A stretch of DNA of 48,410 bases from Anaerolineae bacterium (GCA_046758565.1 JBHIAO010000002.1:1-48410), one strand, 5' to 3'; numbered from the stretch's first letter, positions 20,875 through 41,058 are shown. Notes: generated by a model not told the origin, from the sequence alone. Numbers and translations: made by a program.

Positions 20875-21807
20875 GTGGTTTTCGACCGCAGCCATCAACC
20901 GGAGGTCACGCAGATCCGGCGGGCCATTCTCAAAACGCTCATCTATGGCGACCTCTTCGACTATCCCCTGTTGTCAGAGGAGATCGTTCGCTATCTCTCC
21001 GTGCCTGCATCGTCGGAGACGATCCGTCGACTGCTTGACGACGGCGCAGTTGACGGCGTCTTCGACCGTTCCGACGGTTTCTTCACTTTGCCTGGACGTA
21101 CCAGGCTGATTCCAGTGCGCGAACGCCGCGGGAGTGTCGCTCGCAGGAAATGGGCGGCGGCTCAGAGATATTCCCGCTGGATCGCACGCATGCCATTTGT
21201 TCGTATGGTCGCCGTCACCGGGACGCTGGCTGTCGAAAATGTTGAGCCAACCGACGACATCGATCTTTTCATCGTGACAGCAGCCGGCCGGCTGTGGCTG
21301 AGTCGTGCGTTTGTGATTCTGGTTGTTCGTGCGGCTGCGGTGGCCGGCGACGAACTTTGCCCCAACTACTTCCTTTCTGACCGGAAACTCCCGTTCGAGG
21401 ATCGGAACTTCTTCAATGCCCGTGAACTGGCGCAGATGGTCCCGCTCTACGGCGCCGATACGTACTGTCGAATGCGGGAGCTCAACGACTGGGTCGAGGA
21501 TTACTTGCCTCATGCCGAGGGGACGCCCAATGGCATGCCAATCATGCGATTGGGACCAGTCGAACGGGCTGCAAAGCAGACGGTCGAGCGACTCCTGAGC
21601 GGTCGACTGGGCGCATTCCTCGAAAGCTGGGAGATGCACCGGAAGATCCAGAAGTTCAGCCGGCGTGCTCAGACCGAAGGTGGCAGCGTCGCATTTACAC
21701 CGGATTGCTGCAAAGGTCATTTCGACCACCACGACGAGATCATCTTGCAGCTGTATGAGAAGCGGTTGGCACAATATGGGCTTTCCATGGAGAGGACCGA
21801 TGGCTGA
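20875..21807 (+). CDS. Pol-beta superfamily nucleotidyltransferase-domain protein of unknown function
   Basis: VAVTGTLA...DDIDLFIV matches hG[S/T]-x9-DxD. Also Y.DLFDYPL, CPNYF and CKGHF motifs. Start at GTG 20875 after a G-rich RBS. Confidence 0.75.
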   Translation: MVFDRSHQPEVTQIRRAILKTLIYGDLFDYPLLSEEIVRYLSVPASSETIRRLLDDGAVDGVFDRSDGFFTLPGRTRLIPVRERRGSVARRKWAAAQRYSRWIARMPFVRMVAVTGTLAVENVEPTDDIDLFIVTAAGRLWLSRAFVILVVRAAAVAGDELCPNYFLSDRKLPFEDRNFFNARELAQMVPLYGADTYCRMRELNDWVEDYLPHAEGTPNGMPIMRLGPVERAAKQTVERLLSGRLGAFLESWEMHRKIQKFSRRAQTEGGSVAFTPDCCKGHFDHHDEIILQLYEKRLAQYGLSMERTDG

Positions 21808-23383
21808 GGTTCTGTTTGGTCAATCGTACTATCTGCGCTTCGATCCGAAGCTGTGGGAGGCCATGCAGCCCTACCCGCCTCTGGGCACCCTGTACGCGGC
21901 TAGCTATCTGCGGGAGCGAGGCTACGATGTAGCCCTATTCGATGCCATGCTGGCTGACTCCGAACGGCGCTGGGCGGAAGCGCTAGAGCGGCATCAACCT
22001 CGTTACGCAGTCATCTTCGAGGACAGTTTTAACTACCTCAGCAAGATGTGTCTGCTGCGCATGCGCCAGGCAGCCTTCACAATGTCCGAGATGGCCAAGG
22101 AACGGGACTGCACAGTCATCGTGTGTGGCTCAGATGCTACCGATCATGCTCCCAAGTATTTCGCCCACGGAGTGGACTACGTCCTCATTGGTGAGGGGGA
22201 GGTCACTCTGGGAGAACTGATGGATCATCTCTCTGGGCGAACCGACGTGCCACTTGAGTCCATCGAAGGATTGGCCTTCCCAGAGAACGCTCAACGTCCA
22301 GCACCCAATACCCAATACCCAATACCCAATATCCAACCCGTCTACACTCCGCCGCGCCCCATCATCACCGACTTGGACAGCCTGCCCTTCCCGGCTTGGG
22401 ATCTCGTCGATATTCCTCGCTACCAGGAAATCTGGTACCAGCGGCATGGTTATTACTCGATGAACATGGTGACCACCCGGGGCTGCCCGTACCACTGTAA
22501 CTGGTGTGCCAAGCCAATCTGGGGTCAGCGCTACAACATCCGCAGTCCCGAGAACGTCGTTGCTGAGCTGAACTGGCTCAAAGAAACGTACCGTCCCGAC
22601 CACATCTGGTTCGCCGATGACATCATGGGCCTGAAGCCAGGCTGGCTATCGCGCTTCGCTGATCTCGTCGAGGAGCAGGAGGCTCGCGTACCTTTCAAGA
22701 GCCTCAACCGGGTGGATCTTCTGCTGCGCGACGGCGATATCGATGCCTTGAGGCGGGCCGGTTGCCAAATCGTGTGGGTGGGAGCCGAATCAGGCTCACA
22801 GAAAATCTTGGATGCTATGGAGAAGGGTACTCGGGTGGAGCAGATCTACGAAGCCACGCAGCGTCTGAAGGAGGCCGACATCCAGGTCGGGTTCTTCCTG
22901 CAGTTTGGCTACCCCGGCGAGACCCGGGAGGACGTCGAGAAAACGCTCCAGATGGTACGGGACTGCCGGCCAGATGACATCGGCATGTCGGTCTCCTACC
23001 CGCTGCCCGGCACAAAGTTTTTTGAGCGGGTGCAGGACCAACTAGGCGTCAAACAGAACTGGGTGGACTCCAACGACCTGGCGATGCTCTACCGGGGACC
23101 CTTTACGACGGACTTCTACCGCCAACTCCATACCGCGCTACACAAGGAGTTCCGAGCGCGAAAATACTGGGCTGAGGCGAAGCATCTGGCACGTAGGCCG
23201 ATGGACTTCAGAGCGAAGCACCTGCGCCGCATGGCAGCGATGGTTTACCATACGGTAACTCTGCCAGTGGAGCGCCATCGTCTGAACCGGCTGGAGAAGC
23301 TACCCCACGCCGGCCTGGAACCGCTGCCCCCCGGCTTGGATCAAGCGGCGGCGGCGACGCCCAGCCCGCAGATTGGAGATTAG
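21800..23383 (+). CDS. B12-binding radical SAM protein
   Basis: YPPLGTLY, GEGEVT, TTRGCPYHCNWC, FADD, GAESGS and GYPGET. Start at MAEVL, overlapping the upstream gene. Confidence 0.92.
   Translation: MAEVLFGQSYYLRFDPKLWEAMQPYPPLGTLYAASYLRERGYDVALFDAMLADSERRWAEALERHQPRYAVIFEDSFNYLSKMCLLRMRQAAFTMSEMAKERDCTVIVCGSDATDHAPKYFAHGVDYVLIGEGEVTLGELMDHLSGRTDVPLESIEGLAFPENAQRPAPNTQYPIPNIQPVYTPPRPIITDLDSLPFPAWDLVDIPRYQEIWYQRHGYYSMNMVTTRGCPYHCNWCAKPIWGQRYNIRSPENVVAELNWLKETYRPDHIWFADDIMGLKPGWLSRFADLVEEQEARVPFKSLNRVDLLLRDGDIDALRRAGCQIVWVGAESGSQKILDAMEKGTRVEQIYEATQRLKEADIQVGFFLQFGYPGETREDVEKTLQMVRDCRPDDIGMSVSYPLPGTKFFERVQDQLGVKQNWVDSNDLAMLYRGPFTTDFYRQLHTALHKEFRARKYWAEAKHLARRPMDFRAKHLRRMAAMVYHTVTLPVERHRLNRLEKLPHAGLEPLPPGLDQAAAATPSPQIGD
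22286..22334 (+). repeat. In-frame heptamer tandem repeat (AATACCC-type, about 7 units) inside a radical SAM gene
   Basis: aacgctc aacgtcc agcaccc aataccc aataccc aataccc aatatcc, encoding NAQRPAPNTQYPIPNIQ. Confidence 0.8.
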
Positions 23384-23486: not shown

Positions 23487-24878
23487 ATGGACATCCTGCT
23501 AACCCACGGCTATTACCTCCACGAGGACCCGCACGAGCTGCAGGTCATGAAACCGTACCCGCCGCTGGGTCTGCTGTACATTTCGTCGCATCTGAAGGCG
23601 CGGGGCTTCGAGGTGGGCGTGTTCGACACCACGTTTCAGCGCCGGCCGGCCTTCCGCGAGCATATCGCCCAAACACAACCGCTGGTGGTCGGCATCTACT
23701 GCAACATGATGACCAGGCAGAACGTGTTGGAGATGGTCCGCGCGTGCAAAGACCAGGGCGCCACCGTGGTGCTGGGCGGGCCGGAGCCGGCCAATTACGC
23801 CGAGGAATACCTGGCACGCGGCGCCGACGTGGTGGTCATCGGCGAAGGGGAACTCACTCTGGAAGAACTCCTTCCTCATCTGGCGCGCCGCGGCCCGAGC
23901 GACATGGGCGGCATTGCCGGCATCGTCTACCGGGAAGACGACGGCCAGATCGTGCGAACCTCGCCCCGCCCATACATCGCCGACCTGGATACTCAGCCCG
24001 TCCCCGATCGCGCAGCCATCGACATCAATGAATACGTCCGGGTGTGGCGGGAGCACCACCGGATGGGCTCCGTGTCGCTGATCACCGCCCGAGGCTGCCC
24101 CTACACCTGCACCTGGTGCAGCCACTCGGTCTTCGGCTACAGCCACCGCCGGCGCTCCCCCCAGAACGTGGCCGACGAGGTAGAGCTGATTCTGGAAACT
24201 TACCAGCCGGACATGCTGTGGTACGCCGACGACGTTTTCACCATCCACCCCCGCTGGTTCTTCGCCTACACCGAGGAGCTTAAACGGCGCAGTATCCGCA
24301 TCCCGTTCGAGACGATCTCCCGTGAGGACCGGCTCGACGAAGAGATCATCCGCACGCTGGCCGAGATGGGTTGCTTCCGGCTGTGGATTGGCTCGGAGAG
24401 CGGCTCCCAGCGGGTGCTGGATGCGATGCAGCGTCGCACCGACGCCGGGCGGGTTCGGGAGATGACGCATCTTCTGCAGAAGTACGGCATCGAGGCCGGC
24501 ATGTTCATCATGCTGGGCTACGAAGGTGAGCAGATGGCGGACATCGAGGCCACCGTCGAGCACTTGAAGGCGGCCAACCCCGACGTGTTTCTGACGACTT
24601 TGGCATATCCCATCAAAGGGACGCCGTACTACGAGGAAGTCGCAGACCGCGTGATCGCGCTCAAGCCGTGGGACGAGCGCACAGATCGCGATTTGACGGT
24701 GGCCGGCCGGCATTCCCGGCGTTTCTACGAATTCGCCAACCGCTGGATGGTGAGCGAGGTGAACCTGCACCAGCAGCGCAAAGGCACTGAGCGGAACTAC
24801 TGGCAGATGGCCAAAGCTTTGGTCAACGCCAGGGCTGGCCGGCTGGGGATGTGGTGGACGCGGCGTGAGGTGGAGTAA
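23487..24878 (+). CDS. B12-binding radical SAM protein (paralog of 21800-23383)
   Basis: YPPLGLLY, GGPE, GEGE, TARGCPYTCTWC, YADD and GSESGS. Confidence 0.92.
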   Translation: MDILLTHGYYLHEDPHELQVMKPYPPLGLLYISSHLKARGFEVGVFDTTFQRRPAFREHIAQTQPLVVGIYCNMMTRQNVLEMVRACKDQGATVVLGGPEPANYAEEYLARGADVVVIGEGELTLEELLPHLARRGPSDMGGIAGIVYREDDGQIVRTSPRPYIADLDTQPVPDRAAIDINEYVRVWREHHRMGSVSLITARGCPYTCTWCSHSVFGYSHRRRSPQNVADEVELILETYQPDMLWYADDVFTIHPRWFFAYTEELKRRSIRIPFETISREDRLDEEIIRTLAEMGCFRLWIGSESGSQRVLDAMQRRTDAGRVREMTHLLQKYGIEAGMFIMLGYEGEQMADIEATVEHLKAANPDVFLTTLAYPIKGTPYYEEVADRVIALKPWDERTDRDLTVAGRHSRRFYEFANRWMVSEVNLHQQRKGTERNYWQMAKALVNARAGRLGMWWTRREVE

Positions 24879-24914: not shown

Positions 24915-25364
24915 ATGTCCTACGTCGTTGAAGTCGATCAGAGCGGGAAAATCGGGGACACGAAGATGGCCACTGCGCTGGCTCTTGCAAATGGCATGGA
25001 GTGGGCTATCCTTATTCCAGCAGCCGAGAAGCGAGTGTGTATCCAACGTCTCCGGGGCGAAGGCTATGGAGAACGGATGTACTATCTGCTCTTTGCTACT
25101 GCGCTGTTCTTGTTGCTAAGAGATTGCATTGAAGAGCTCATCTTGGTGATAATTGACGAGGAGTACCGTGGCAAAGAGACCATGATCTTGGGGCACTTGT
25201 TAAACCTCTTTCGCCGATCAGGAAGACGCGTAAAAGCTGAGCAGTTTGCTTTTCGTCGGATTACCAAGAAGTCTCCCGCCCATCGCGTGGCTCTGGAGAC
25301 TCTGCGTGGTGATCGTCGAGCAGATCGAGTGATAACTGCTGAGGAGTTGCTGGAAGAGTTTTGA
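24915..25364 (+). CDS. Small DUF3800-like protein (putative RNase H-like fold)
   Basis: N-terminal strand VEVDQSG (compare DESG), second acidic strand VIIDEEY and C-terminal KKSPAH. Visibly more AT-rich than its neighbours. The family assignment is by motif resemblance only. Confidence 0.6.
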   Translation: MSYVVEVDQSGKIGDTKMATALALANGMEWAILIPAAEKRVCIQRLRGEGYGERMYYLLFATALFLLLRDCIEELILVIIDEEYRGKETMILGHLLNLFRRSGRRVKAEQFAFRRITKKSPAHRVALETLRGDRRADRVITAEELLEEF

Positions 25365-25539: not shown

Positions 25540-26391
25540 ATGAGCCATTCCTTCGATGGTGCTGCAGCAGGGTATGATGCCAACTTCTCTCACTCCCGCC
25601 TGGGGCGCTGGCTGCGTGAGAGCGTGTGGGAGCATCTGGCAGCCGCCTTCCATGCCGGCGACCACCTGCTGGAACTTGGCTGCGGCACCGGCGAGGACGC
25701 CATCTGGCTGGCGAAACAGGGCGTGCGCGTCGTGGCGACAGATGCGTCGCCGGCCATGCTGGAGGTGGCCCGGTACAAAGCGGAGAGGGCAGGCGTGACG
25801 GACCAAGTCTCCCTTGCGCGGCTCGATCTCTTGGAGATTAGAGATTGGAGACTAGAGATTGAGGCTGTGGACGACCCAATCTCCAATCTCCATTCTCCAT
25901 TCTCTCATCTCCAATCTCCAATCTCCAGCTTCGACGGCGCTTTCTCGAATTTCGGCGCCCTCAACTGTCTGCCCGACCGCAGGCCCATCGCCGAGGCACT
26001 GGCGCAATGGGTGCGGCCAGGAGGACGGGTTGTGCTGGTGGTAATGGGGCCTCTGTGCCCGTGGGAGGTAGTCTGGCATCTGGCTCATGGTGAAGTGCGG
26101 GCCGCCTTCCGCCGATTTCGATCCGGGGTGGTGGCTCACGTGGGCGGGGGTGCAACGGCGCGCGTGTGGTATCCGTCGCCGCGCCGGCTGCGAGCCGAAT
26201 TCGCGCCGTATTTCCGGCACCTGGAAACCGTCGGTATTGGTGCTCTGCTACCTCCATCGTACCTGAACCATCTGGTGGAGCGGTGGCCGCGCCTGTTCAA
26301 GACACTGGCAACGCTAGAGCGGCGGCTTGGGCACGTATTTCCCTGGCCGTGGCTCAACGACCACTACTTGACCGTCTGCGAACGGAACTAG
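25540..26391 (+). CDS. Class I SAM-dependent methyltransferase
   Basis: LLELGCGTGED, ATDAS and FDGAFSNFGALNC. Confidence 0.9.
   Translation: MSHSFDGAAAGYDANFSHSRLGRWLRESVWEHLAAAFHAGDHLLELGCGTGEDAIWLAKQGVRVVATDASPAMLEVARYKAERAGVTDQVSLARLDLLEIRDWRLEIEAVDDPISNLHSPFSHLQSPISSFDGAFSNFGALNCLPDRRPIAEALAQWVRPGGRVVLVVMGPLCPWEVVWHLAHGEVRAAFRRFRSGVVAHVGGGATARVWYPSPRRLRAEFAPYFRHLETVGIGALLPPSYLNHLVERWPRLFKTLATLERRLGHVFPWPWLNDHYLTVCERN
25831..25927. repeat. In-frame heptamer inverted-repeat array inside the methyltransferase gene
   Basis: (TTGGAGA) about 4-5 units, then (CCAATCT) about 7 units, encoding EIRDWRLEIEAVDDPISNLHSPFSHLQSPIS. Confidence 0.8.
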
Positions 26392-26399
26392 TCTGATCG

Positions 26400-26620
26400 T
26401 CTTATGGTCAATTGGCCTCGTGGTCTAGCTGATCGGCAACCAACGGGCCAAATGACCAACAGGCTCAGCAGATCCACTTTTGCTCGGCTTGGATTGTCAG
26501 ATCCAGGCCGACATCGAGGATTTGGCAATCCCCTCGGAGCAATTTTGGATCTAATGAAGCTAGCTGACCAGGTGGCCAACAGACCAAGTGACCAACAGAC
26601 CAAATGACCAAATGACCAGA
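26400..26620. repeat. Degenerate octamer repeats (GACCAAAT-type) filling the intergenic region
   Basis: For example gccaaatgaccaacag near 26447 and gaccaagt gaccaaca gaccaaat gaccaaat gaccaga at 26582-26620. Confidence 0.6.
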
Positions 26621-27535
26621 TTCGCCTGCCCGGTGTGCCGCACGCTGCTGGAGGCGCCGGCACCGGACGAGCGATGCTGTCCTGTTGATGGGACAGTCTA
26701 TCGGCGCGTGGATGGCATCTGGCGGTTTTTGCTGCCGGAGCGAGCCGCCTTCTTCCAGCAGTTCATCCAGGAATACGAGACCGTGCGCCAGGCCGAGGGC
26801 CGGGGCTCCGACGATCCAGCATACTATCGTGCCCTGCCGTTCCAGGATTTGACGGAGCGCTTCAGCGATGACTGGAGCATCCGGGCGAGGAGCTTTCAGG
26901 CTTTGGTGGAGCAGGTTGTGACGCCTGTCGAAGCGCAGCGTAGCCGGCCACTGACGGTGCTTGACCTGGGCGCCGGCAACGGCTGGCTGTCGTACCGCCT
27001 GGCAGCGCGCGGCCATCAGGTCGCGGCTGTTGATCTGCTGACCAATGCTTTCGACGGCCTGGGCGCCCACATCCACTACGATGTCGCTTTCACACCGGTT
27101 CAGGCCGAGTACGACCGCCTGCCGTTCGAGGCTGATCAGGTGGACCTGGCAGTGTTCAACGGATCGCTCCACTACGCCACGGACTACGAGACGGCACTTA
27201 GTGAGGTGTTGCGGGTCATGCGACGGGATGGCCGGCTGGTCATCATGGATTCGCCGGTGTATCATGACGCGACTAGTGGTGAGCAGATGGTCCGGGAACG
27301 CGAGGCACAGTTCGAGGGGGCACACGGCTTCCCATCCAACGCCATTCCAAGCGAGAACTATCTCACCTACGACCGGCTGGGTGAATTGGCCGGCGCCCTG
27401 GAGCTGAGCTGGGAGGTCATCGAGCCGTTTTACGGCTGGCGCTGGGCCTTGAAGCCGTGGAAAGCGCGCTTGCTGGGCCGCCGCGAGCCGGCCCAGTTCC
27501 TGCTCATAGTGGGACAGCAAGCATCGAAAGGGTGA
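26612..27535 (+). CDS. Class I SAM-dependent methyltransferase with Trm112-like N-terminal Zn ribbon
   Basis: FACPVC...CPVD...DGIW, VLDLGAGNGW, AVD and FNGSLHY. Confidence 0.88.
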   Translation: MTRFACPVCRTLLEAPAPDERCCPVDGTVYRRVDGIWRFLLPERAAFFQQFIQEYETVRQAEGRGSDDPAYYRALPFQDLTERFSDDWSIRARSFQALVEQVVTPVEAQRSRPLTVLDLGAGNGWLSYRLAARGHQVAAVDLLTNAFDGLGAHIHYDVAFTPVQAEYDRLPFEADQVDLAVFNGSLHYATDYETALSEVLRVMRRDGRLVIMDSPVYHDATSGEQMVREREAQFEGAHGFPSNAIPSENYLTYDRLGELAGALELSWEVIEPFYGWRWALKPWKARLLGRREPAQFLLIVGQQASKG

Positions 27536-28663: not shown

Positions 28664-28731
28664 ACCCCGAATGTTTTTCTGAATATCTATAGCCGTTCCC
28701 GTTGTGTGGAAAACAGTTATCGGATGAAGCG

Positions 28732-30621: not shown

Positions 30622-30674
30622 TGATTGCAAACGGAAAAAAGTAACATGCCATGAAGATGCGCAGACGGCCCTTG

Positions 30675-30741: not shown

Positions 30742-30749
30742 AGCCAGCG

Positions 30750-34383: not shown

Positions 34384-35814
34384 ATGAAGAAACAGACCAT
34401 CTTGCTATATAACCCCCAATCAGAAGCGTACAACTATCCTCTGGGATTGTTGGCCATTGCGTCGCTCCTTGATCGGTCCAGATACGACGTCGAGATTGTA
34501 GACGCTGGGATCGAGGCTGATCCCCTGGCCCGCGTCGAGGCGCATCTGCACGACGCCTTGTGTCTGGGGGTGACGGTGGTGACCGGCCAGCCCATTGAGG
34601 ATGCCTTGCGGGTGTCACGGTTCGCCAAGGAGCGCCGGCCCGATCTCTCCGTCATCTGGGGCGGCTGGCACCCCTCCATTTTCCCCGAGCAGTGTCTTGG
34701 CAGCCCGTACGTGGATGTCGTGGCGATCGGCCAGGGGGAAGAGACCTTCGCAGAGGTGGTCCAACGCCTGGCCGAAGGACGTGATCTGGCCGGCTGCCGG
34801 GGCACGGTCTCCAGGCACAACGGCCGAATCGTCCACAACCCGCCACGGCCCTTCACCGACATCAATGACTTCCCATCTCTGGACTTTTCGCTTCTGGACG
34901 TACCGCGCTACATCGAGAAGCGCGGCGCTTCGGTGCTGGATTTCTGCTCCTCACAGGGCTGTCCCTGGCGCTGCACCTTTTGCTCCGAACCGCTCATCAA
35001 CCAGCGTCGTTGGTCCGGCCTGAAAGGGCCGCGGCTGGTCACCGAACTGACGGCCCTGGCGGAGCGCTACGGCTTTCAAGACGTTCACTTCATGGACGAG
35101 CTGTTCTTCGTCAACCCCAAGCGCGTGCGGTCGTTCGCCGAGGGACTCATCGCGTCCGGCGTGGAGCTACGCTGGCGGGCCACGGCCCGCGCCGACGAGA
35201 TCGCCCGCGCCGACGACGAGTTTCTGGAGCTGATCAGGCGCAGCGGCGGCTACCACATCTTCGTGGGGGCCGAGTCCGGCTCTCAGGTTATCCTGGATCG
35301 CATCAAGAAGGACATTACTGTGGAGCAGATCTGGACGACGGCCGAGAAGCTGCACCGGTTCGGTTTCGAAGCCACCTTCACCTTCATCGTGGGCTTTCCC
35401 CACGAACCGCCAGAGACGGCCTGGGATACCATCCAAATGGCCAAGCGCTTGCGGGATATGGACCCCGGGTTCGACACGCCGCTGCTGTTCTTCACACCCT
35501 ATCCCGGCACCGAAGAATACCTGGCGCTGGTTCGAGAGAACGTCCCGCTGCCTGGCACGTTAGAGGAGTGGGCGAGCCGCGAATTCAAGACTTCGCCGGG
35601 GAGTTGGGTCTCGCCCGAGCTGCGCCGCGTCATCCAGAATCTGAACTTCTACCTGCCCCTGGCCTATCCCACATACCCGGATGGGACCAACCCGCTGCGG
35701 TCGATGGTCCGGCGACTGGCCCGCTGGCGGGTCGAAAACGACATCCACGCCTGGCCGGTGGAGAAATACCTTCACCGCTGGTACCGGCAGATCCGGCCGA
35801 AAGGCTTGTCTTGA
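34384..35814 (+). CDS. B12-binding radical SAM protein
   Basis: YPLGLLAIA, WGGWHPS, GQGEET, SSQGCPWRCTFC, GAESGS, IVGFP and TPYPGT. AAGGAG RBS. Confidence 0.92.
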   Translation: MKKQTILLYNPQSEAYNYPLGLLAIASLLDRSRYDVEIVDAGIEADPLARVEAHLHDALCLGVTVVTGQPIEDALRVSRFAKERRPDLSVIWGGWHPSIFPEQCLGSPYVDVVAIGQGEETFAEVVQRLAEGRDLAGCRGTVSRHNGRIVHNPPRPFTDINDFPSLDFSLLDVPRYIEKRGASVLDFCSSQGCPWRCTFCSEPLINQRRWSGLKGPRLVTELTALAERYGFQDVHFMDELFFVNPKRVRSFAEGLIASGVELRWRATARADEIARADDEFLELIRRSGGYHIFVGAESGSQVILDRIKKDITVEQIWTTAEKLHRFGFEATFTFIVGFPHEPPETAWDTIQMAKRLRDMDPGFDTPLLFFTPYPGTEEYLALVRENVPLPGTLEEWASREFKTSPGSWVSPELRRVIQNLNFYLPLAYPTYPDGTNPLRSMVRRLARWRVENDIHAWPVEKYLHRWYRQIRPKGLS

Positions 35815-36008: not shown

Positions 36009-36017
36009 AGGGCATTG

Positions 36018-37502
36018 GTGAGCACCGAACGGAGGCTCGTCGTCCTGTACCATCCGGAGATCTTCGATGGGTTCTACCGGTTCCCCATCTCGCTGCTGGC
36101 CCTGGCTGCGGTGTTGGAAGAGAGCCCGTACGAGGTTATCATCGTGGACGCCAACATCGAGCCAGAGCCGCTGAAGCGCCTGGAGACGCTGGCGCCGGCC
36201 GCGCTGTGCATCGGGATGACCACCATGCCTGGCCGGCAGACGATGAATGCCTACAGGGACAGCCAGTACCTCAAGGCGCGTTTCCCCGACTTGCCCATCG
36301 TCTGGGGTGGCTACTTCGCCTCGATGTATCCCGACGTGTGCCTGACCAGCCGCGCTGTGGACATCCTGGTCAGAGGCCAGGGCGAGATCACTTTCACCGA
36401 GCTGCTGGGGCGCCTGGCAGGCAGTGCATGTGATCCCGATCTGACTGACCTGGCCGGCATCTCCTATTGCAACGGCGACCGAATTGTCCACAATCCCGAG
36501 CAGCCCATGGTCAAGGCTTACGATTTCCCGCCTTTTCCCTTCTGGAAATTGCCGGTACAGCGATATATCAATCGCATGTGGTTGGGCGATCGCACAACCT
36601 TCTACGTGTCCAGCATCGGTTGTACGTACAACTGCAGCTTCTGCGCCATCCCGGTCACCCTGGGTGAGCGGCGCTGGACCGGCTTTCCGGCCAGGCGGGT
36701 GTTGCAAGACATCGACTATCTGCTGAAGACGTGCCATATCGATGGGCTCTATTTCGGTGACACCAATTTCTTCGTAGACGAGCGGCGGGTGCGAGACATC
36801 ACGCAAGGGCTCATCGAACGCGGCAGTCCCATCAACTGGTGGGCCGAGGGGGTCATCGGGCAGCTCCTGCGTTACGACGACAGCACCTGGGAGATGCTGC
36901 GGGAAAGCAGGTGCACCGGCCTTTTCGTCGGCGTAGAATCCGGCTCGGACGAGGTGCTGGCCATGACCGTGGACAACAAGACCAGCCGTGAACAGGCTCG
37001 GGAGTTCGCCAGGAAGTGTCGCCGGCACGGGCTCTTCCCTGAGTTCTCCTTCGTCCTGGGGTATCCGCCGGAGCCCGAGAAAGATATCACGGCCTCGGTC
37101 GATTTCATGTACGAGCTGAAGGCGATCCATCCTTTCAGTCACCTCATCCCGCATATCTTCACGCCGTTGGCGGGGACCGATGATTACGCGCTGGCACAGC
37201 AGTACGGGTTTGCTCATCCGCGCACGATGGAGGAGTGGATCGAGGGACCGTGGCAGGAGTTCAGCAATATGCATGGCACACGCACCCCCTGGCTCAAGCC
37301 CTGGACCCGGCGCTACTTGCGGCACCTGGACAAGGTGATCTGGTACAAGAACCTGCTGGAGACCCCCAATCGGCCGCTGGTGCCGGTGCGCCCAATAGGG
37401 AAAGAGTTGATCAAGTGCTTCACGCGTCTACGCTGGCGGTTCCGCTTCTTCTGGTTCCCGTATGAACTGGCCGTGTTCCGGCGGGTGGCGAGGTTTGTGT
37501 GA
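36018..37502 (+). CDS. B12-binding radical SAM protein (paralog of 34384-35814)
   Basis: FPISLLALA, WGGYF, GQGEIT, SSIGCTYNCSFC, GVESGS and VLGYP. Confidence 0.92.
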   Translation: MSTERRLVVLYHPEIFDGFYRFPISLLALAAVLEESPYEVIIVDANIEPEPLKRLETLAPAALCIGMTTMPGRQTMNAYRDSQYLKARFPDLPIVWGGYFASMYPDVCLTSRAVDILVRGQGEITFTELLGRLAGSACDPDLTDLAGISYCNGDRIVHNPEQPMVKAYDFPPFPFWKLPVQRYINRMWLGDRTTFYVSSIGCTYNCSFCAIPVTLGERRWTGFPARRVLQDIDYLLKTCHIDGLYFGDTNFFVDERRVRDITQGLIERGSPINWWAEGVIGQLLRYDDSTWEMLRESRCTGLFVGVESGSDEVLAMTVDNKTSREQAREFARKCRRHGLFPEFSFVLGYPPEPEKDITASVDFMYELKAIHPFSHLIPHIFTPLAGTDDYALAQQYGFAHPRTMEEWIEGPWQEFSNMHGTRTPWLKPWTRRYLRHLDKVIWYKNLLETPNRPLVPVRPIGKELIKCFTRLRWRFRFFWFPYELAVFRRVARFV

Positions 37503-37506
37503 AACG

Positions 37507-37558
37507 GGGAATCCAGGGTACTCAAGGAACTCAGGGGAACTGAAGGGAACTGAGGGGA
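37507..37558 (+). repeat. Degenerate 9-10-mer tandem repeat (GGGAACTCA-type)
   Basis: gggaatcca gggtactca aggaactca ggggaactga agggaactga. Confidence 0.6.
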
Positions 37559-37560
37559 TT

Positions 37561-38412
37561 GTGGCAGGGCCGGTACCGGGGCCGGTGAGACGCCTTCTCC
37601 GAGGCTTGAGATCTCGTTTGAGACTTCCGAAGTCTGGCAGACTTCGGAAGTCTGGAATCGTGGACCCACATACCGGGTACAATCTCTGGGCGTCCACCTA
37701 CGATGCCGATGAGACCGGCAATCCCGTTCTGGGTGCCGAGCGGGCGGCCATGAGGGATCTCCTGCCGCCGTTGCGAGGTCGGGCCGTGCTGGACCTCGCC
37801 TGCGGCACTGGGCACTACGCCCTGCAGGCCGCGCAAGCGGGCGCCCGGCGGGTCGTCGGCGCAGATCTGTCGATGGGCATGCTCCACCAGGCTCGGGACA
37901 AGGTCGGCCACTGCTGGCCCCTTGTCCTCCTGGTCCAGGCCGACCAGGCGTGCCTGCCCTTTGGCACCCGTACCTTCGATGTAGTGATCCATGCTGTCGG
38001 CATGGGATACGCCCCCGATCTGCGCCCTGTGACCGCCGAACTGGCCCGTGTCTTGCGGCCAGGCGGCGTAGCCTTCGTGTCCGACCTGCACCCCCAGGGC
38101 GTGCGCCAGGGCTGGCGGCGCACCTTCGTACACCGGGCTGGCGCTGTACGCCGCCAGGTGGACCTGCGAACCTACGCCCACCGGTTGCAGGATTATCACG
38201 CGGCCTTCGAGCAGGCCGGCCTGTCCATCATCCGCATCATCGAGCCGCAGATTGACGAGACGACGCGGCCTTTCTTCGCCGCCGCTGGCGCCCTGGAACG
38301 ATACGAACGCTACTGGGGTCATCCGTTACTGGTCATCTTCGAATTGCGCCGTGTAGGACGAATTGGCAATTCGTCCCACGGGCAGTTCCCCGAGGGGCCC
38401 AATGCTGACTGA
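37561..38412 (+). CDS. Class I SAM-dependent methyltransferase (BioC-like)
   Basis: GYNLWASTYD, VLDLACGTG, GADLS, LPF...FDVV, LRPGG and SDLHP. Start uncertain. Confidence 0.85.
   Translation: MAGPVPGPVRRLLRGLRSRLRLPKSGRLRKSGIVDPHTGYNLWASTYDADETGNPVLGAERAAMRDLLPPLRGRAVLDLACGTGHYALQAAQAGARRVVGADLSMGMLHQARDKVGHCWPLVLLVQADQACLPFGTRTFDVVIHAVGMGYAPDLRPVTAELARVLRPGGVAFVSDLHPQGVRQGWRRTFVHRAGAVRRQVDLRTYAHRLQDYHAAFEQAGLSIIRIIEPQIDETTRPFFAAAGALERYERYWGHPLLVIFELRRVGRIGNSSHGQFPEGPNAD
37621..37655. repeat. AGACTTCCGAAGTCT palindrome pair
   Basis: AGACTTCCGAAGTCTGGC AGACTTCGGAAGTCTGG, related to the palindromes inside the 4801-4943 MITE. Confidence 0.7.
38353..38379. repeat. GTAG-type REP forming part of the 3' end of the methyltransferase gene
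   Basis: GTAGGACGAATT-GGC-AATTCGTCCCAC palindrome. Confidence 0.65.
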
Positions 38413-39829
38413 ACTGCGCTCGCTGTTCAAGCGTATCGCCCTGAATTCCCTGTGGCTGCTCATCGCTCGGGTGTTCAGCCAGGGCTTGATGATCGTCTTT
38501 ACCGTGCTGGTTGCGCGGTATCTGGGCGAGGTGGGACTGGGGCAGTACGCCTTCATCGCGGCCGTCGTCTTCCTGGGGAACGTCCTGACGACCTTCGGGC
38601 TGGATACGCTCCTGATCCGCGAGGTTGCCAGGACGCGGAGCGCCCCTTCGACAACCCTTCCCTTCGACGGGGATCAGGACAGGCGACGGGGCTCAGGCGG
38701 CGTCTTGAGTTTATCGAAGGGACAAGGCTCCGGGCGCCGCGCAGCACCTCTTGTGACTGCCACGTTGTGGATCCAACTGGGCTTCTCGGCCTTGCTCATA
38801 GGCGGCATCGCCGTTGGGGCCGGGTGGTTGCCGAACAAGACGCCTGAAACGGTCCTGGGGCTAAGGCTGTACAGCCTCTCCCTGATACCCCTGGCCTTCA
38901 ACACGGCTTTCAGTGCCAGTCTGCGGGCCTACGAGCGGATGGACCTGATCCTGGTGCTGAATCTGCTGTCGGCCGTCGTGCAGACTGGTGGCGCCCTGGG
39001 GCTGCTGCAGACCGGTCGGGGACTCGTCGCCCTGGTGGTCTTCCTGCTGGCGGTTCAGACTCTGACTGCGGTAGTGGCCGGCGGGATGTGTTTTCGCTGG
39101 CTGCCGGGTTTTGTCCTGACCAGGCGAGTGCCGCGCCGTCTGGTCCGGCGAATGCTCCACCAGAGTTACCCTCTGGCCCTGGTGGCTGTGCTCATGGTGG
39201 CCTATCAACGCCTGGGGGTTCTCATGCTCTCCTCACTGGCCGATGATGCCGCCACCGGCTGGTTTGCGGCCGCGGCGCGGATCACCGACGCTCTCAAGAT
39301 GGTCCACTATGCCTACTTCGGGGCCGTCTTCCCCCTCATGTCCCGCCTCGCCGTTGACTCGCCGCTTCCCGGGGACAGCCAGGACGCCCGGAACATAGAG
39401 CGTGGTCTTTATCGGACCTCTTTCGGCCTCCTCTTGGGCTTCGGTTTGCTGACGGCGTTGGCCGTCACCCCTCTAGCGCAACCGGTGATCAGGTTGCTTT
39501 ACGGATTGAGCTACGCTCCTTCGGTGCCGGCCCTCCAAATACTGGTCTGGACCCTGATCCCCTTCGCTGTGAGCAGCCACGTCTTCTTCTGGTTGATCTC
39601 CAATGGCCGGGAAAAGGCGACTTTGAAAGTCATCGCACTGACCCTGGGGAGCACAGCCGTCCTGAACGTCCTGCTGATCCCGGCCTTTGGTCTTGTCGGT
39701 GCGTGCCTGGCCGCCCTGGCCGGCGAAGTGCTCCAGGCTGTGCTCTACATGCCCTATGCCTGGCGTGGGATTTCAGATTTCAGATTTCAGCTTTCGGATT
39801 TCGAGTTTACGGAGAGGGACGGTCTATGA
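38402..39829 (+). CDS. Wzx/MOP family oligosaccharide flippase
   Basis: NSLWLL, ARYLGEVGLGQY, FGLDTLLIREVA, GWFAAAAR, FPLMSR, LLIPAFGLVGA and 12 or more TM segments. Confidence 0.9.
   Translation: MLTELRSLFKRIALNSLWLLIARVFSQGLMIVFTVLVARYLGEVGLGQYAFIAAVVFLGNVLTTFGLDTLLIREVARTRSAPSTTLPFDGDQDRRRGSGGVLSLSKGQGSGRRAAPLVTATLWIQLGFSALLIGGIAVGAGWLPNKTPETVLGLRLYSLSLIPLAFNTAFSASLRAYERMDLILVLNLLSAVVQTGGALGLLQTGRGLVALVVFLLAVQTLTAVVAGGMCFRWLPGFVLTRRVPRRLVRRMLHQSYPLALVAVLMVAYQRLGVLMLSSLADDAATGWFAAAARITDALKMVHYAYFGAVFPLMSRLAVDSPLPGDSQDARNIERGLYRTSFGLLLGFGLLTALAVTPLAQPVIRLLYGLSYAPSVPALQILVWTLIPFAVSSHVFFWLISNGREKATLKVIALTLGSTAVLNVLLIPAFGLVGACLAALAGEVLQAVLYMPYAWRGISDFRFQLSDFEFTERDGL
38644..38740. repeat. Nested CCCTTCGAC...CTCAGG REP-like insertion, in frame inside the flippase gene
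   Basis: Three CCTTC(GAC) starts. Segment 38655-38721 begins CCCTTC, ends GAAGGG and is flanked by ACAA direct repeats. Confidence 0.7.
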
Positions 39830-41058
39830 GGCCCTGGCAGACGCTGGCGAGCAACGTCTCTCGGCTGGTACAGCGGGTCCGTCAGTCGCCCCGGTTGCGA
39901 CTGAGGGGTGGTCACCTGGTCCTGCCATCCAGCGTGGTTGAGGCCGATCTGGTGATCGACCAGGGACGCATCATCTCCGTGGGTGAGGGGCCGGCGGCCC
40001 GGGCCGACGAGCAGATTGTCGATGTGTCGGGGTTGTTGGTCTTCCCCGGCCTGATCAATGCTCACGATCACCTGGAGTTTAACTGCTTCCCCCGCCTGGG
40101 TGAGCCCCAGGCGTACGCGAATTCCTACGAGTGGGCTGAGGACATCATGCACCGTCGGCGCCAGCCGGTCATGGACCGCGTGCTGCAGATTCCGCTCAGG
40201 GATCGGTTGCTGGCCGGCGGCTACAAGAACCTCCTCTCCGGCGTGACCACCGTCTGTCATCACGACCCTTACCAGCGCCTGTTCGACCGTGGTTTTCCGG
40301 TGCGGGTGGTGAAGCGATACCGTTGGTGTCACTCCCTGGGCTTTGGCGACGACGTGATCGGCTCGTATCGCAACACACCGCCCGATGTGCCGTGGATCAT
40401 TCACCTGGCTGAGGGCGCCGACGAGACGGCCGGCGGCGAGCTCACCCGTCTGGCCGAGCTGGGCTGCGTGGGCTCCAACACCGTCATCGTCCACGGTGTA
40501 GCGCTGGGCGAGTCCGACATCGACTTGATGGCCCGGCGCGGCTCCGGGCTCATCTGGTGCCCCGCTTCCAATCTGTTTCTGTTCGGGCGGACGGCGCCCA
40601 TCGAAAGTCTGAAGAGCCGGGTGACCGTCGCATTGGGCAGCGACTCGCGGCTCAGCGGCAGCCAGGATCTGCTGGCGGAGTTGAAGGTTGCCCGCAGCCT
40701 CGGTGTAGCGGACGATGAGGAGCTTTTCGACATGGTCACCCGGGGTGCGGCGCGGCTGCTGCGCATCGACGATGAGGTGGGGACGGTGGAACCCGGCAAG
40801 CGGGCGGATTTGCTGGTACTGGCCGGCGATGTGGATGCCCCTTATTGCGCCTTGGTCACCGCGCATGCGAAGGCGATTCGGCTGGTCCTGATTGCCGGTC
40901 GGCCGGCCTACGGGACGGCCGAGTTCGCCGAGCTTTTTCAGTCAGATGGGCGACCCTTCACGCAGGTCCTTGTGAGCGACCAACCCTATCTGGTGGTGGG
41001 CGGGCCGGCTGACGTAGAGCGCGGCTTACGGGCAGGTTTTTCAGGATCAGTTGCTTGA
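39826..41058 (+). CDS. Metal-dependent amidohydrolase superfamily protein (deaminase-like)
   Basis: PGLINAHDH, GVTTV, IHLAEG, IVHG, WCPASN, LGSDS and GKRADL. ATGA overlap with the flippase stop. Confidence 0.9.
   Translation: MRPWQTLASNVSRLVQRVRQSPRLRLRGGHLVLPSSVVEADLVIDQGRIISVGEGPAARADEQIVDVSGLLVFPGLINAHDHLEFNCFPRLGEPQAYANSYEWAEDIMHRRRQPVMDRVLQIPLRDRLLAGGYKNLLSGVTTVCHHDPYQRLFDRGFPVRVVKRYRWCHSLGFGDDVIGSYRNTPPDVPWIIHLAEGADETAGGELTRLAELGCVGSNTVIVHGVALGESDIDLMARRGSGLIWCPASNLFLFGRTAPIESLKSRVTVALGSDSRLSGSQDLLAELKVARSLGVADDEELFDMVTRGAARLLRIDDEVGTVEPGKRADLLVLAGDVDAPYCALVTAHAKAIRLVLIAGRPAYGTAEFAELFQSDGRPFTQVLVSDQPYLVVGGPADVERGLRAGFSGSVA

Follow-up and report, generated by a model that had tools for sequence, protein, structure and literature searches.

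A conserved radical SAM cassette beside a variable GT-C block in an Anaerolineae bacterium: a candidate system for decorating surface sugar polymers

What could be made by a gene run in which five radical SAM enzymes stand beside membrane glycosyltransferases and a flippase, and does such a run constitute a single unit? The question is raised by a stretch of 48,410 nucleotides from an Anaerolineae bacterium (GCA_046758565.1, JBHIAO010000002.1:1-48410), hereafter the window, where ORF calling and Pfam searches delimit, on the plus strand at 20875-41058, a single co-directional and densely packed run that extends from the called start of g4 (20875) to the stop of g18 (41058). The gene classes that an earlier note had listed from the sequence are all present, on that strand and where it had placed them, including a PAP2 phosphatase (g2) and a further methyltransferase (g3) upstream of the run, as well as two paralog pairs of B12-binding radical SAM proteins (g5/g6, 34% identity; g14/g15, 35%). 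We show here that the run is a composite of a conserved cassette based on the g4-g5 pair and of a variable part comprising the GT-C block, the PAP2 phosphatase and the amidohydrolase; the run as a whole most likely serves to decorate a sugar polymer of the cell surface, in a manner so far undescribed. The features are as follows.

17767..18831, plus: g1, protein of 354 aa whose N-terminal segments are hydrophobic (hydropathy; no Pfam family)
18806..19399, plus: g2, PAP2 phosphatase (PF01569, 60.1 bits)
19433..20323, plus: g3, class-I SAM methyltransferase (Methyltransf_23, 97.2 bits)
20432-20461 (12/12) and 20790-20817 (11/12), plus: candidate sigma-70-like promoters, two matches within the 550 bp that precede g4 (consensus matches only)
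20875..21807, plus: g4 (P0001, 310 aa), winged-helix domain and Pol-beta-type nucleotidyltransferase fold (structure matches)
21800..23383, plus: g5, B12-binding radical SAM, clade A, directly after g4 (PF02310 + PF04055, CxxxCxxC)
23487..24878, plus: g6, B12-binding radical SAM, clade B, paralog of g5 (PF02310 + PF04055, CxxxCxxC)
24915..25364, plus: g7, 149 aa, RNase H-like fold, multi-copy (no Pfam; Atlas)
25540..26391, plus: g8, class-I methyltransferase (split Methyltransf_25 match)
26588..27535, plus: g9, class-I methyltransferase (Pfam; start uncertain, ATG 26612 possible)
27538..28578, plus: g10, radical SAM with C-terminal SPASM/twitch domain (Radical_SAM + SPASM, 42.3 bits)
28732..30621, plus: g11 (P0182, 629 aa), GT-C-fold membrane glycosyltransferase with C-terminal beta-rich domain (AF2 model)
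30651..32081, plus: g12, GT87-family GT-C glycosyltransferase (101 bits against a cut-off of 25)
32078..34369, plus: g13, GT-C glycosyltransferase of family GT87 with a fused PD40 (TolB-like) beta-propeller (GT87 98 bits, cut-off 25)
34384..35814, plus: g14, B12-binding radical SAM, clade C, long-branch member (PF02310 + PF04055, CxxxCxxC)
36015..37502, plus: g15, B12-binding radical SAM, clade D, paralog of g14 (PF02310 + PF04055, CxxxCxxC)
37462..38412, plus: g16, class-I methyltransferase (Pfam; start uncertain)
38402..39829, plus: g17, polytopic Wzx-type (MOP superfamily) flippase (Polysacc_synt, 93.6 bits)
39826..41058, plus: g18, amidohydrolase-superfamily enzyme (Amidohydro_1)
41027..41152, minus: candidate GT4 N-terminal remnant (tblastn, 42 aa, 50% identity, E 6.6e-5)

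By tblastn, a B12-binding radical SAM gene directly follows g4 in 75 of 80 Chloroflexota loci; an ORF-based count gives 68/80, with two loci lacking room and ten scored as "none", six of which (L022, L025, L053, L072, L092, L099) are positive by tblastn. The minimal cassette reads g4-g5-MT-MT-Wzx, where MT is a methyltransferase (e.g., L050, L057, L071, L094-L096), and the full one g4-g5-g14-g6-g8-(g9)-MT-g15-g10 (L025, L041, L042, L086; G017, G027). From these sequences, the cassette appears to have grown stepwise, from a g4-g5 core to one holding four B12-binding radical SAM clades, a SPASM radical SAM and methyltransferases. The tree of the B12-binding enzymes resolves the four clades (support 99, 78, 92 and 98; clade A, 99), the window contributing one member to each. 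The most conserved enzyme of the cassette is g5 (56-83% identity in the loci; columns 60% identical on average in an alignment of 22 sequences), while g8 is the best match for 51 ORFs in the loci, g9 homologs at 50-69% identity occur in both minimal and full cassettes, and a lone g14-like gene is found in two genomes (G012 and G014), within about 35-40 kb. Since this synteny recurs across Chloroflexota, where the cassette is widespread yet unstudied, the arrangement of the run goes beyond chance.

The proposal that all these genes form one cluster stands in part: other genomes also bring together the nucleotidyltransferase-like, B12-binding radical SAM, SPASM and methyltransferase genes, but the run's GT-C genes, amidohydrolase, PAP2 gene and PD40 domain do not accompany the cassette elsewhere. 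As one conserved unit, the 20-kb run is contradicted, given that no g11 homolog was found in 40 relatives, that g12 homologs (39-43%) exist in 4/40, on other contigs, and that g12, g13 and g18 are in none of the 80 loci.

Such a distribution invites the view that a self-contained radical SAM cassette of unrelated function has been interrupted by, and merely lies beside, the GT-C/flippase block, the two sharing no product. The locus L066 fits this view, as its cassette (g4-g5-g6-g9-g10-g15, 69-80% identity, its g15 copy being sister to ours at 80%) has nothing between g10 and g15; the multi-copy insertion g7 and the GT4 remnant after g18 point the same way, as does the g10/g11 junction, which is unbridged in the listed contig pieces and falls at their ends (28633-28669). 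Against it, g13 and g14 are separated by 14 bp that include an AAGGAG site, and their junction is spanned by public contigs in four runs from two studies (X1, X2, X3, X4), one of them from a diverged strain. Read depth is even over the gene run in X1 and X2, other glycan genes recur near the cassette, and fusions join the g4 domain to glycosyltransferases of three folds (see below). We therefore hold this separation of functions to be quite unlikely. The remaining spacing is also operon-like, with an 8 bp overlap of g4/g5, 2 bp between g9/g10, and an ATGA common to g12/g13 and another to g17/g18 (the g17 ORF opens at 38363 with a likely start at ATG 38402, and that of g18 at 39703, with ATG 39826 overlapping the g17 stop).

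The signature gene of the cassette, g4, has no Pfam match (PF01909 is unmatched at E <= 0.1), and its 1981 matches in a sequence search are, every one, hypothetical proteins without Pfam; the family counts 6708 cluster representatives at E <= 0.001, and 25 of the 301 Chloroflexota genomes sampled have it, each in a single copy. Its model (pLDDT 90.8) presents a nucleotidyltransferase fold at residues 86-220, with matches to ANT(4') (Z 7.5, rmsd 3.4, 114 aligned), LinB (Z 5.6) and ANT(3'',9) (Z 5.3), values under 8 that fall in the range the structure tool calls common, and to MNT antitoxins (MntA, Foldseek probability 1.00). Residues G116, D128 and D130 are invariant, giving the signature G-x11-D-x-D, and PF01909 is annotated in 11-41% of the members of the corresponding Atlas clusters, so that the nucleotidyltransferase-like nature proposed earlier for g4 is borne out. 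It differs from the ANT(4'), LinB and MNT proteins by an extra N-terminal winged helix, by a conserved C-terminal part, in which C162 and C279 are invariant, and by the lack of a PF01909 match.

The resemblance to aminoglycoside and lincosamide nucleotidyltransferases, together with the weak similarity of g5 (7.5e-16) and g14 (3.7e-12) to AprD4 and of g10 to BlsE (5.4e-11; MoaA, 1.1e-10), its closest solved relatives, could evoke a secreted aminoglycoside- or nucleoside-like product, with g4 for tailoring or self-resistance and the MOP-family protein as exporter; GenK and GenD1 are B12-dependent radical SAM sugar C-methylases of gentamicin synthesis. However, the cassette, in the window and the sampled neighbourhoods, has neither a cyclitol synthase nor an aminotransferase nor any enzyme that would form a scaffold, Wzy-type genes are enriched near g4, and the g4 family, single-copy in each genome, is fused to GT4 and to synthase-type GT2 domains typical of polymers, all of which makes a small molecule very unlikely.

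These fusions lead to the question of glycan assembly. Among 61 long proteins with the g4 domain, the partner is a GT4 in 33, a radical SAM in 21 (18 of them with the B12 domain), a GT2 in six and a PF13231 GT-C in one, and both domain orders are seen. Around g4, one or more genes of the GT4, GT2, Wzy, Wzx or GT-C type were found in 40/80 loci and in 25/43 loci of at least 15 kb, against 10/56 controls, with Wzy in 24/80 against 2/56 and Wzx-type genes in 18/80 against 1/56, the controls being 56 20-kb windows of the same single genome and the related loci not being independent. In relatives, the cassette adjoins GT4, GT2, Wzy (Wzy_C) and Wzx genes instead of the GT-C block of our run, and GT-C genes also flank it in L025, L092 and L048. 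The link to glycan assembly advanced in the earlier note is thus sustained by the g4-glycosyltransferase fusions, by the enrichment of Wzx, Wzy and glycosyltransferase genes and by the bridged 14-bp g13/g14 junction.

Some cassettes do lie among housekeeping genes (L029, L035, L042), and 18 of the 43 long loci have no glycan gene by the limited query set. This agrees with another possibility, namely that the cassette methylates or rearranges a lipid, either the polyprenyl-phosphate carrier or the head group of a membrane lipid, and that glycosyltransferases and flippases are neighbours only through the same lipid. B12-dependent radical SAM enzymes methylate hopanoids, a PAP2 gene stands upstream of the run, and the NCBIfam similarity to HpnJ (1e-30 to 6e-34), HpnR and TIGR04072, a "lipid biosynthesis B12-binding/radical SAM protein" (1e-34), is as strong as to any other family. 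Nevertheless, these lipid-family scores are all far under the curated cut-offs, isoprenoid and fatty-acid genes were not seen in the sampled neighbourhoods, and the fusion of g4 to soluble GT4 enzymes (33/61) and GT2 synthases (6/61) suggests a sugar-transfer step over lipid tailoring, which leaves a lipid substrate unlikely.

In g5, g6, g14 and g15, PF02310 and PF04055 score over cut-off, and the SPASM/twitch domain of g10 carries five cysteines (302, 320, 357, 360 and 362 in ORF numbering). Curated NCBIfam cut-offs are reached by none of the run's radical SAM enzymes, which by this measure belong to no characterised family, in keeping with the earlier note, which recognised no characterised pathway. 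A B12-binding domain is no proof of methyl transfer; AprD4, a sequence relative of these enzymes, is named a diol-dehydratase in NCBIfam.

The closest solved relative of g5 is QCMT/MgmA (2.1e-17; PDB 9CCB), the glutamine C-methyltransferase of methyl-coenzyme M reductase, ApyD, a RiPP radical SAM, matches g6 and g14 at 1e-37 to 5e-40, SPASM radical SAM enzymes are frequent peptide maturases, and some GT-C enzymes glycosylate proteins. A peptide or protein could hence be the substrate, either a RiPP or a surface protein later glycosylated by the GT-C enzymes. Yet the family cut-offs of ApyD and QCMT are not reached (TIGR04014, 93-97 bits against 360), and no conserved small ORF or candidate RiPP precursor was found in or by the cassette in 80 loci, where the best cluster was CspA-like (6 loci). 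Leader peptidase, RRE-type and ABC-protease genes were likewise not seen in the window and sampled neighbourhoods, and a peptide substrate seems to us highly improbable. The name QCMT for 9CCB is found in a review (PMC12931638); that enzyme differs from the cassette in its protein substrate and archaeal context.

With regard to the membrane enzymes, g11 scores 25.4 where the PTPS_related family of Pfam requires 26.4, and all 29 PDB matches of its AF2 model (pLDDT 76.6) at E <= 0.001 are GT-C enzymes, among them DPY19, STT3/AglB/PglB, ArnT and AftD, with PimE at E 0.014; the protein is rare (12 at E <= 1e-5). Both g12 and g13, 31% identical to each other, pass the GT87 cut-off and, with the GT-C fold of g11 and a flippase in the same run, recall GT87/PimE-type systems. 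The window lacks an initiating phosphoglycosyltransferase, Wzy, NDP-sugar genes and a polyprenyl-phosphate sugar synthase. As to the assertion that it holds no intact GT-A or GT-B enzyme, a tblastn search that used five GT4 sequences and a single GT2 sequence, a limited set and not a family-wide scan, yielded only the minus-strand 42-aa remnant, which aligns with the glycosyltransferase portion of a g4-GT4 fusion from a relative and lies within a stop-to-stop frame at 40958-41242.

From what is shown, namely which genes are present, their folds and operon-like spacing, the synteny and the fusions, we consider it moderately probable that the run represents a composite locus for surface glycans, in which a sugar unit is altered by radical chemistry in the cytoplasm, flipped, and then transferred by GT-C enzymes. 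The nearest solved relatives of the radical SAM enzymes include AprD4 and BlsE, which act on sugars or nucleosides and so favour this reading, at weak similarity. Weighing against it are the long loci without a glycan gene, the solitary g14-like genes, the unconserved GT-C block, the unbridged g10/g11 junction, the missing initiating transferase, Wzy and sugar genes, and QCMT as the closest solved relative of g5. We infer the substrate, the chemistry of each radical SAM enzyme, the acceptor and the sequence of events as follows. The cassette, here with all four B12-binding clades (g5, g6, g14, g15), g10 and the class-I methyltransferases g8, g9, g16 and perhaps g3, would begin with g4, the partner of g5, which would attach a nucleotide (NMP) to the sugar unit or use a nucleotide-activated sugar. 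The radical enzymes would then change unactivated carbons of this unit, most likely by C-methylation, deoxygenation or rearrangement being possible, and the class-I methyltransferases would add O- or N-methyl groups. The completed polyprenyl-borne unit would be flipped by g17 and moved at the outer face, by g11, g12 and g13, to a wall glycan, a lipid or a protein, and recycling of the carrier by g2 may follow.

A comparable logic operates in fosfomycin synthesis, where a nucleotide handle (Fom1) comes before methylation by a B12-dependent radical SAM enzyme (Fom3). The two functions are consecutive partners there as they would be here, where the pair is adjacent in 75/80 loci and fused in 21 proteins; Fom1 has a cytidylyltransferase fold, unlike the Pol-beta/ANT type of g4, no phosphonate genes were seen with the cassette, and PhpK-type P-methyltransferase models remain under cut-off. 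AprD4 shares with our enzymes the N-terminal B12-binding-type domain, the radical SAM core with CxxxCxxC and, if our proposal is right, a chemistry directed at unactivated carbons of sugars. For g5 and g14 it ranks near the top of the sequence matches with solved structures, and its model gives 80 bits for g15, against a family cut-off of 500 bits that none of the run's radical SAM enzymes attains. Moreover, AprD4-type enzymes (class B sugar radical SAM), with which we take GenK and GenD1 to belong among the sugar-acting members of antibiotic pathways, tailor soluble pseudo-oligosaccharide antibiotics, whereas the cassette lies in a context of Wzx, Wzy, glycosyltransferase and GT-C genes, has four paralogous clades and an obligate partner of nucleotidyltransferase fold.

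TIGR04295 ("B12_rSAM_oligo"), an uncharacterised hypothetical equivalog of B12-binding radical SAM proteins, has a short name that suggests an oligosaccharide context; g5, g6, g14 and g15 reach 36-78 bits against its cut-off of 400 and are therefore not members. Wzx/Wzy-dependent loci are approached by the Wzx-type gene of the window and by the cassettes of relatives within GT4, GT2, Wzy_C and Wzx loci, but the window has no Wzy, no initiating transferase and, by the limited query set, no soluble glycosyltransferase; a B12-dependent radical SAM tailoring module for such loci was not found described in the literature searched. From the three-component GT-C glycosylation systems (PMC11127046), the window differs in that no polyprenyl-phosphate glycosyltransferase or small GtrA-type flippase was seen in it, and in coupling its GT-C genes to radical SAM genes.

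Finally, the accessory genes display varied histories. The protein g7, absent from the gene list of the earlier note, has five paralogs outside its own contig, 41-56% identical to it, and no homolog in 80 loci, and is probably an insertion foreign to the pathway. No homolog of g18 was found in the same loci, and its best NCBIfam score is 93 bits against cut-offs of 390-617. A heptamer-repeat insert (25832-25940) interrupts the methyltransferase domain of g8. The phosphatase g2, which most resembles undecaprenyl-diphosphate phosphatases without reaching the cut-offs of these families (NF008813, 77.8 bits against 229), is a possible recycler of the lipid carrier; it is present in 1/80 loci and therefore not conserved with the cassette. 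Homologs of g3 (62-65% identity) lie immediately upstream of g4 in L021, L022 and L023 only, and the synteny of g1 is limited to the closest relatives, a 69% identical homolog standing upstream of the cassette in one genome of the same family.

The source MAG comprises 6.6 Mb in 932 contigs, is 91.75% complete and contributes the window as one entire contig (C2, 48,410 bp); the names carried by homologs assign it to the class Anaerolineae of the Chloroflexota. Eighteen open reading frames, g1 to g18, follow one another on the plus strand between 17767 and 41058, and the gene run that the earlier note had claimed at 20875-41058 is borne out by these frames, by their Pfam classes and by their tight spacing.

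Plus-strand open reading frames at 17767-41058, with Pfam assignments
g1, g4, g7, plus strand: without Pfam assignment
g2, plus strand: PAP2
g3, g8, g9, g16, plus strand: class-I methyltransferases
g5, g6, g14, g15, plus strand: B12-binding and Radical_SAM domains
g10, plus strand: Radical_SAM and SPASM domains
g11, plus strand: PTPS_related, 1 bit below the Pfam cut-off
g12, plus strand: GT87
g13, plus strand: GT87 and PD40 propeller
g17, plus strand: Polysacc_synt, Wzx-type
g18, plus strand: Amidohydro_1

The run is operon-like, since the likely starts give overlaps and short gaps: g4 and g5 overlap by 8 bp, 2 bp lie between g9 and g10, an ATGA is common to g12/g13 and to g17/g18, and g14 follows g13 after 14 bp, with an AAGGAG site ahead of its start. 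Paralog pairs are recognized by identity (g5/g6, 34%; g14/g15, 35%; g12/g13, 31%). The gap 5′ of g4 contains two strong sigma-70-like sites, which are consensus matches only, and a terminator scan 3′ of g18 returned no clear candidate. Both flanks are unrelated to the run: upstream, the minus strand carries genes of flavoprotein, PrpD and Mo-hydroxylase types, and TlyA, LepA, Uma2 and PolX are found downstream. Four public runs hold the stretch, three of them labelled hydrothermal vent metagenome and the fourth without an organism label; none is listed as RNA, all four being recorded as DNA or unknown kind.

The conservation of the run was approached through the surroundings of g4 homologs in species genomes, with 80 loci taken out of at least 573. 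Almost all bear the label Chloroflexota and span many of its classes, the few other labels being Thermomicrobiales/Thermomicrobiaceae, one ‘Candidatus Sulfomarinibacteraceae’ and two ‘bacterium’. By tblastn, a B12-binding radical SAM gene lies directly 3′ of g4 in 75 of the 80, the exceptions being loci L030, L079, L081 and L085, together with L076, which meets a contig end. An ORF-based count gave 68/80, with two loci without room and ten scored as ‘none’, six of the latter being artefacts of long ORF starts. The identity of g5 across classes ranges from 56 to 83%, with a mean column identity of 60% in the family. Around this pair the cassette is found as a minimal form (g4-g5-MT-MT-Wzx, where MT stands for methyltransferase), a middle form (g4-g5-g6-g8, with g15 present in some) and a full form (g4-g5-g14-g6-g8-(g9)-MTS-type MT-g15-g10). 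When the ORFs of the 80 loci are assigned by their best match in the window, 74 correspond to g5, 51 to g8, 47 to g6, 24 to g15, 20 to g9, 16 to g17, 15 to g14 and 9 to g10, and none to g7, g12, g13 or g18. Furthermore, a maximum-likelihood tree of 89 rows, for which 28 of 64 g5-type and 28 of 43 g6-type rows were kept, separates the B12-binding radical SAMs into four clades (support 99, 78, 92 and 98), with one member of the window in each; the g14 of the window forms a long branch, and its g15 pairs with the copy of locus L066. In an even sample of the phylum, g4 occurs in 25 of 301 genomes, one copy each, and is an accessory trait.

The view of the whole run as one conserved cluster therefore stands only in part: the cassette genes recur together, but the GT-C genes, PD40, PAP2 and the amidohydrolase are not co-conserved with them. 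A homolog of g11 was found in none of 40 relatives, and homologs of g12 (39-43% identical) in four of the 40, on other contigs. In locus L066, g15 comes next after g10, without intervening GT-C genes, and in the relatives' genomes G012 and G014 the fetched 35-40 kb contain a solitary g14-like gene. As cassette partners, PD40 (2/80 loci vs 2/56 controls), PAP2 (1/80) and the amidohydrolase (0/80) were rejected. With recurring and non-recurring genes side by side, the run could also be a mosaic of unrelated units, a reading that we consider rather improbable.

At the center of the cassette are enzymes of a class, the B12-dependent radical SAMs, known from antibiotics, cofactors, hopanoids, RiPPs and methyl-coenzyme M reductase. 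By domain content g5, g6, g14 and g15 are class B (B12-binding) radical SAMs, for which cobalamin binding and methyl transfer are predicted: they score 37.3, 73.5, 65.5 and 48.3 bits, respectively, on PF02310 (cut-off 32.1 bits) and 51.8-76.3 bits on the PF04055 core. One CxxxCxxC motif is present in each of the five radical SAMs, g10 included. The latter reaches 42.3 bits on SPASM (PF13186; cut-off 21.5). A full SPASM motif has seven cysteines and two auxiliary clusters; g10 has only five cysteines after residue 300 (302, 320, 357, 360 and 362), which fits a twitch or partial SPASM.

No radical SAM of the window reaches, by whole-protein score, the curated cut-off of any NCBIfam family, those compared including BchE, HpnJ, HpnR, PhpK, BzaD, the ladderane-type lipid radical SAM TIGR04072, the MCR Gln methylase TIGR04014, ApyD, AprD4, KedN5, TsrM-type TIGR04428 and ArsL. 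The best scores are 93-158 bits for BchE (cut-off 481), 107-118 for HpnJ (578), 75-138 for ApyD (750) and, for TIGR04072, 55-120 (360); alongside these partial resemblances, modification of a lipid by the cassette is a secondary possibility that we judge unlikely. Tetrapyrrole, bacteriochlorophyll and cobamide lower-ligand pathways, suggested by similarity to BchE, BchM, NirJ and BzaD, were rejected because all scores are far below the cut-offs and no tetrapyrrole genes lie near the run. Among solved sequences the nearest are distant: QCMT (PDB 9CCB, 2.1e-17; PMC12931638) and AprD4 for g5, AprD4 and TokK for g14, BlsE and MoaA for g10. AprD4, a sequence relative, is named a diol-dehydratase in NCBIfam, and not a methylase. 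A secreted small molecule as the product would be very improbable. A peptide or protein target is the least probable of the readings weighed: among 860 small ORFs clustered from the 80 loci there is no RiPP precursor gene conserved with the maturases, and the best small-ORF family, present in six loci, is a CspA-like protein; a precursor gene could, however, lie elsewhere. The cold-shock gene, of about 70 aa, lies between the g6 and g8 homologs in L032, L034, L037, L038 and L039; in L047 it is found on the strand opposite to g4 and upstream of it.

The signature protein of the cassette, g4 (P0001, 310 aa), falls in a large family whose members are hypothetical proteins, with 1981 matches among the scored candidates and, at E <= 0.001, 6708 cluster representatives at 50% identity (2644 at E <= 1e-30). 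No Pfam family is found on any of the 120 homologs listed, and g4 itself has no match to PF01909 at E <= 0.1; in its Atlas sister clusters this domain is carried by 11-41% of members. In the AlphaFold model, built with 29 sequences (pLDDT 90.8), residues 1-75 form a winged helix, and a Pol-beta-type nucleotidyltransferase fold occupies about 86-220. MNT antitoxins (MntA) have a Foldseek probability of 1.00, yet no match at E <= 0.001, and VIA-align gives modest Z values for ANT(4′) (7.5), DrrA (6.3), a Sulfolobus nucleotidyltransferase (6.0), LinB (5.6) and GlnE (5.5), so that the fold call is based on Foldseek probabilities, on VIA-align Z of 5-7.5 and on the motif. Indeed, G116, D128 and D130 are invariant among the 29 family sequences, and we take them to be the G...DxD catalytic signature of Pol-beta-type nucleotidyltransferases. 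A profile of g4 against PDB sequences found only an MNT antitoxin (E 0.16), and LicD/fukutin-type phosphotransferases, considered as another possible identity of g4, have no structure among the matches listed. The description ‘nucleotidyltransferase-like’ is thus a fair one, because of the fold matches, the invariant signature and PF01909 in the sister clusters. A predicted complex of g4 with g5 scored 0.37, and one control 0.63.

What ties this pair to glycans is the company kept by the g4 domain. In 61 long proteins it is joined to GT4 (33), to a radical SAM (21, of which 18 have a B12 domain), to synthase-type GT2 (6) and, in the remaining one, to a PF13231 GT-C. The g4 part is found on either side of GT4, at the C-terminal end of the GT2 and GT-C fusions and at the N-terminal end of those with the radical SAM. 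These independent fusions to three glycosyltransferase folds and to the radical SAM neighbor link g4 and g5 to a sugar-transfer step. In the relative's genome G017 the cassette opens with a g4-GT4 fusion, followed by two GT4 genes, Wzx and two Wzy_C; locus L096 reads GT4, Wzy, GT2, g4, g5, MT, MT, Wzx, BcsB-like; and L025 has Wzy and GT-C 5′ of g4 and a PMT-like GT-C 3′ of g10. With a small set of phmmer queries, one or more GT4, GT2, Wzy, Wzx or GT-C genes are detected in 40 of the 80 loci (25/43 of those of at least 15 kb), as compared with 10 of 56 control 20-kb windows of the source genome outside C2, an enrichment to be read with a control from one genome, related loci and queries that came from some of these loci.

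In the window, g12 and g13 score 101 and 98.1 bits on GT87 (Pfam cut-off 25). The g11 protein, a rare one (12 proteins at E <= 1e-5), narrowly misses PTPS_related (25.4 bits; cut-off 26.4); its model (pLDDT 76.6) has only GT-C enzymes among its Foldseek PDB matches at E <= 0.001 (29/29), including DPY19, STT3/AglB/PglB, ArnT, AftD, ALG12 and AftA, and is accordingly predicted to adopt a GT-C fold. The adjacency of GT87 and radical SAM genes at g13|g14 is no assembly artefact, since single public contigs bridge it in four runs from two studies, one of them from a diverged strain. At the g10|g11 junction the listed pieces come to their contig ends (28633-28669); depth is equal on either side, and the junction is not independently bridged. 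As for g17, it reaches 93.6 bits on PF01943 Polysacc_synt (cut-off 28.2), has many hydrophobic segments, being polytopic, and does not reach the Wzx_EPS equivalog of NCBIfam (36.6; cut-off 800). A second Wzx-like gene of the genome, 30% identical to g17, lies on contig C103 (1650-2750) and adjoins a short radical SAM match, 44% identical to g10 over 73 aa. PNP_UDP_1 genes (nucleoside phosphorylase/nucleosidase-type) occur in 8/80 loci against 0/56 control windows, and because of them g18 was considered as a 5′-deoxyadenosine/SAH deaminase for by-product salvage, a model on which it scores 79 bits (cut-off 522). In minimal cassettes such genes stand 3′ of the Wzx gene (L050:15553-16362, L057:15778-16551 and six further loci), and their product could remove 5′-deoxyadenosine or SAH, or else have a nucleoside intermediate as its substrate.

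The window differs from a canonical Wzx/Wzy-dependent locus in that its ORFs include, by Pfam, no initiating phosphoglycosyltransferase, soluble glycosyltransferases or Wzy, although genes of such loci do occur beside the cassette in relatives. A tblastn search of the window with five Wzy, five GT4 and one GT2 queries found only a 42-aa GT4 N-terminal remnant. This stretch (41027-41152, minus strand; 50% identity, E 6.6e-5) lies in a stop-to-stop frame at 40958-41242 that overlaps the end of g18, and is possibly the relic of a GT4 gene like those found 3′ of the cassette in relatives. The variable set of glycosyltransferases, GT-C here and GT4, GT2 or Wzy elsewhere, resembles surface-polysaccharide loci that vary around conserved modules. 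Altogether, we rate it as a glycan locus whose tailoring module belongs to a hitherto undescribed type.

The best reading, and in our view a modestly probable one, is the radical tailoring of a sugar unit that is then flipped and transferred by GT-C enzymes. In the cytoplasm, g4 would nucleotidylate the sugar unit or use a nucleotide-activated one, and g5, joined here by g6, g14, g15 and g10, would carry out radical chemistry on unactivated carbons, most likely C-methylation; the resemblance to AprD4 and BlsE would make deoxygenation or rearrangement possible for some of them. O- or N-methyl groups would be added by g8, g9 and g16, g17 would flip the unit on a polyprenyl carrier, and g11, g12 and g13 would transfer it outside the membrane, where the propeller of g13 may bind the acceptor; g2, in turn, may recycle the carrier. 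More tentatively, g4 might set a nucleotide handle on a free or lipid-linked sugar, to be used by a dedicated and highly conserved B12-binding radical SAM for C-methylating or rebuilding unactivated carbons, and up to four such enzymes plus a twitch radical SAM, acting in series, might produce carbon-branched sugars made by no known pathway, on the surface polymers of Chloroflexota. Under this nucleotide-handle proposal the g4 family would be a general glycan-tailoring adaptor, given its fusions to GT2, GT4 and GT-C.

A literature search, most subscription journals and supplements lying outside it, found no published description of the cassette or of B12-binding radical SAMs in surface-glycan loci, and the words ‘polysaccharide’, ‘glycan’ and ‘sugar’ are absent from the main text of a 2026 review of the enzyme class (PMC12931638). 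If the cassette tailors sugars, it would open a new class of glycan modifications, supply a role for the large hypothetical family to which g4 belongs (6708 representatives) and offer a way into the envelope, so far poorly known, of the Chloroflexota, a major phylum in the environment. The g4-g5 pair, compact and of two proteins, suits in vitro work.

Several minor features accompany the run. The g7 frame (24915-25364, plus strand; 149 aa, without Pfam family) has five paralogs, 41-56% identical, on contigs C46, C88, C446, C143 and C32 of the same genome, and is placed by the Atlas close to DUF2209/DUF3800 clusters, with an RNase H-like fold; as it has homologs in none of the 80 related loci, it is probably an insertion, whether of a selfish or of an accessory gene. 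Within g8 (25832-25940), an in-frame insert and an inverted repeat are made up of heptamers, ATCTCCA and the complementary sequence; heptamers of this type appear again within and at the end of g5 (22315-22335, 23354-23387), and the g8-g9 gap has a repeat with a period of 8 nt (26567-26619). At these sites in g5, g8 and the g8-g9 gap, public contigs show depth spikes, loose ends and false ‘joints’. In the 200-bp gap between g14 and g15 (35799-36000), a 21-nt direct repeat occurs three times, along with an inverted repeat of 26 nt (35834-35859 / 35957-35982).

Elsewhere in the genome, nine strong matches to the B12-binding domain (90-105 bits; contigs C297, C847, C238, C33, C193, C30, C31, C32 and C295) sit in open frames of 141-266 aa, a length that suggests small corrinoid proteins; these would point to extensive corrinoid-dependent methyl transfer and hence to cobalamin availability in the source organism. 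On the minus strand of the window, 385-17368 holds three flavoprotein paralogs of succinate-dehydrogenase/fumarate-reductase type, two MmgE/PrpD genes, a three-subunit Mo-hydroxylase (CoxLMS-like), a GntR regulator, an aminotransferase and parts of a peptide-type ABC transporter, and looks like a catabolic island unrelated to the cassette run. At the other end, two genes for putative endonucleases of the Uma2 family (PF05685; 44118-46097, plus strand, and 46620-48347, minus strand), one of them fused to a UPF0150-like domain, adjoin a PolX-type polymerase with a PHP domain.
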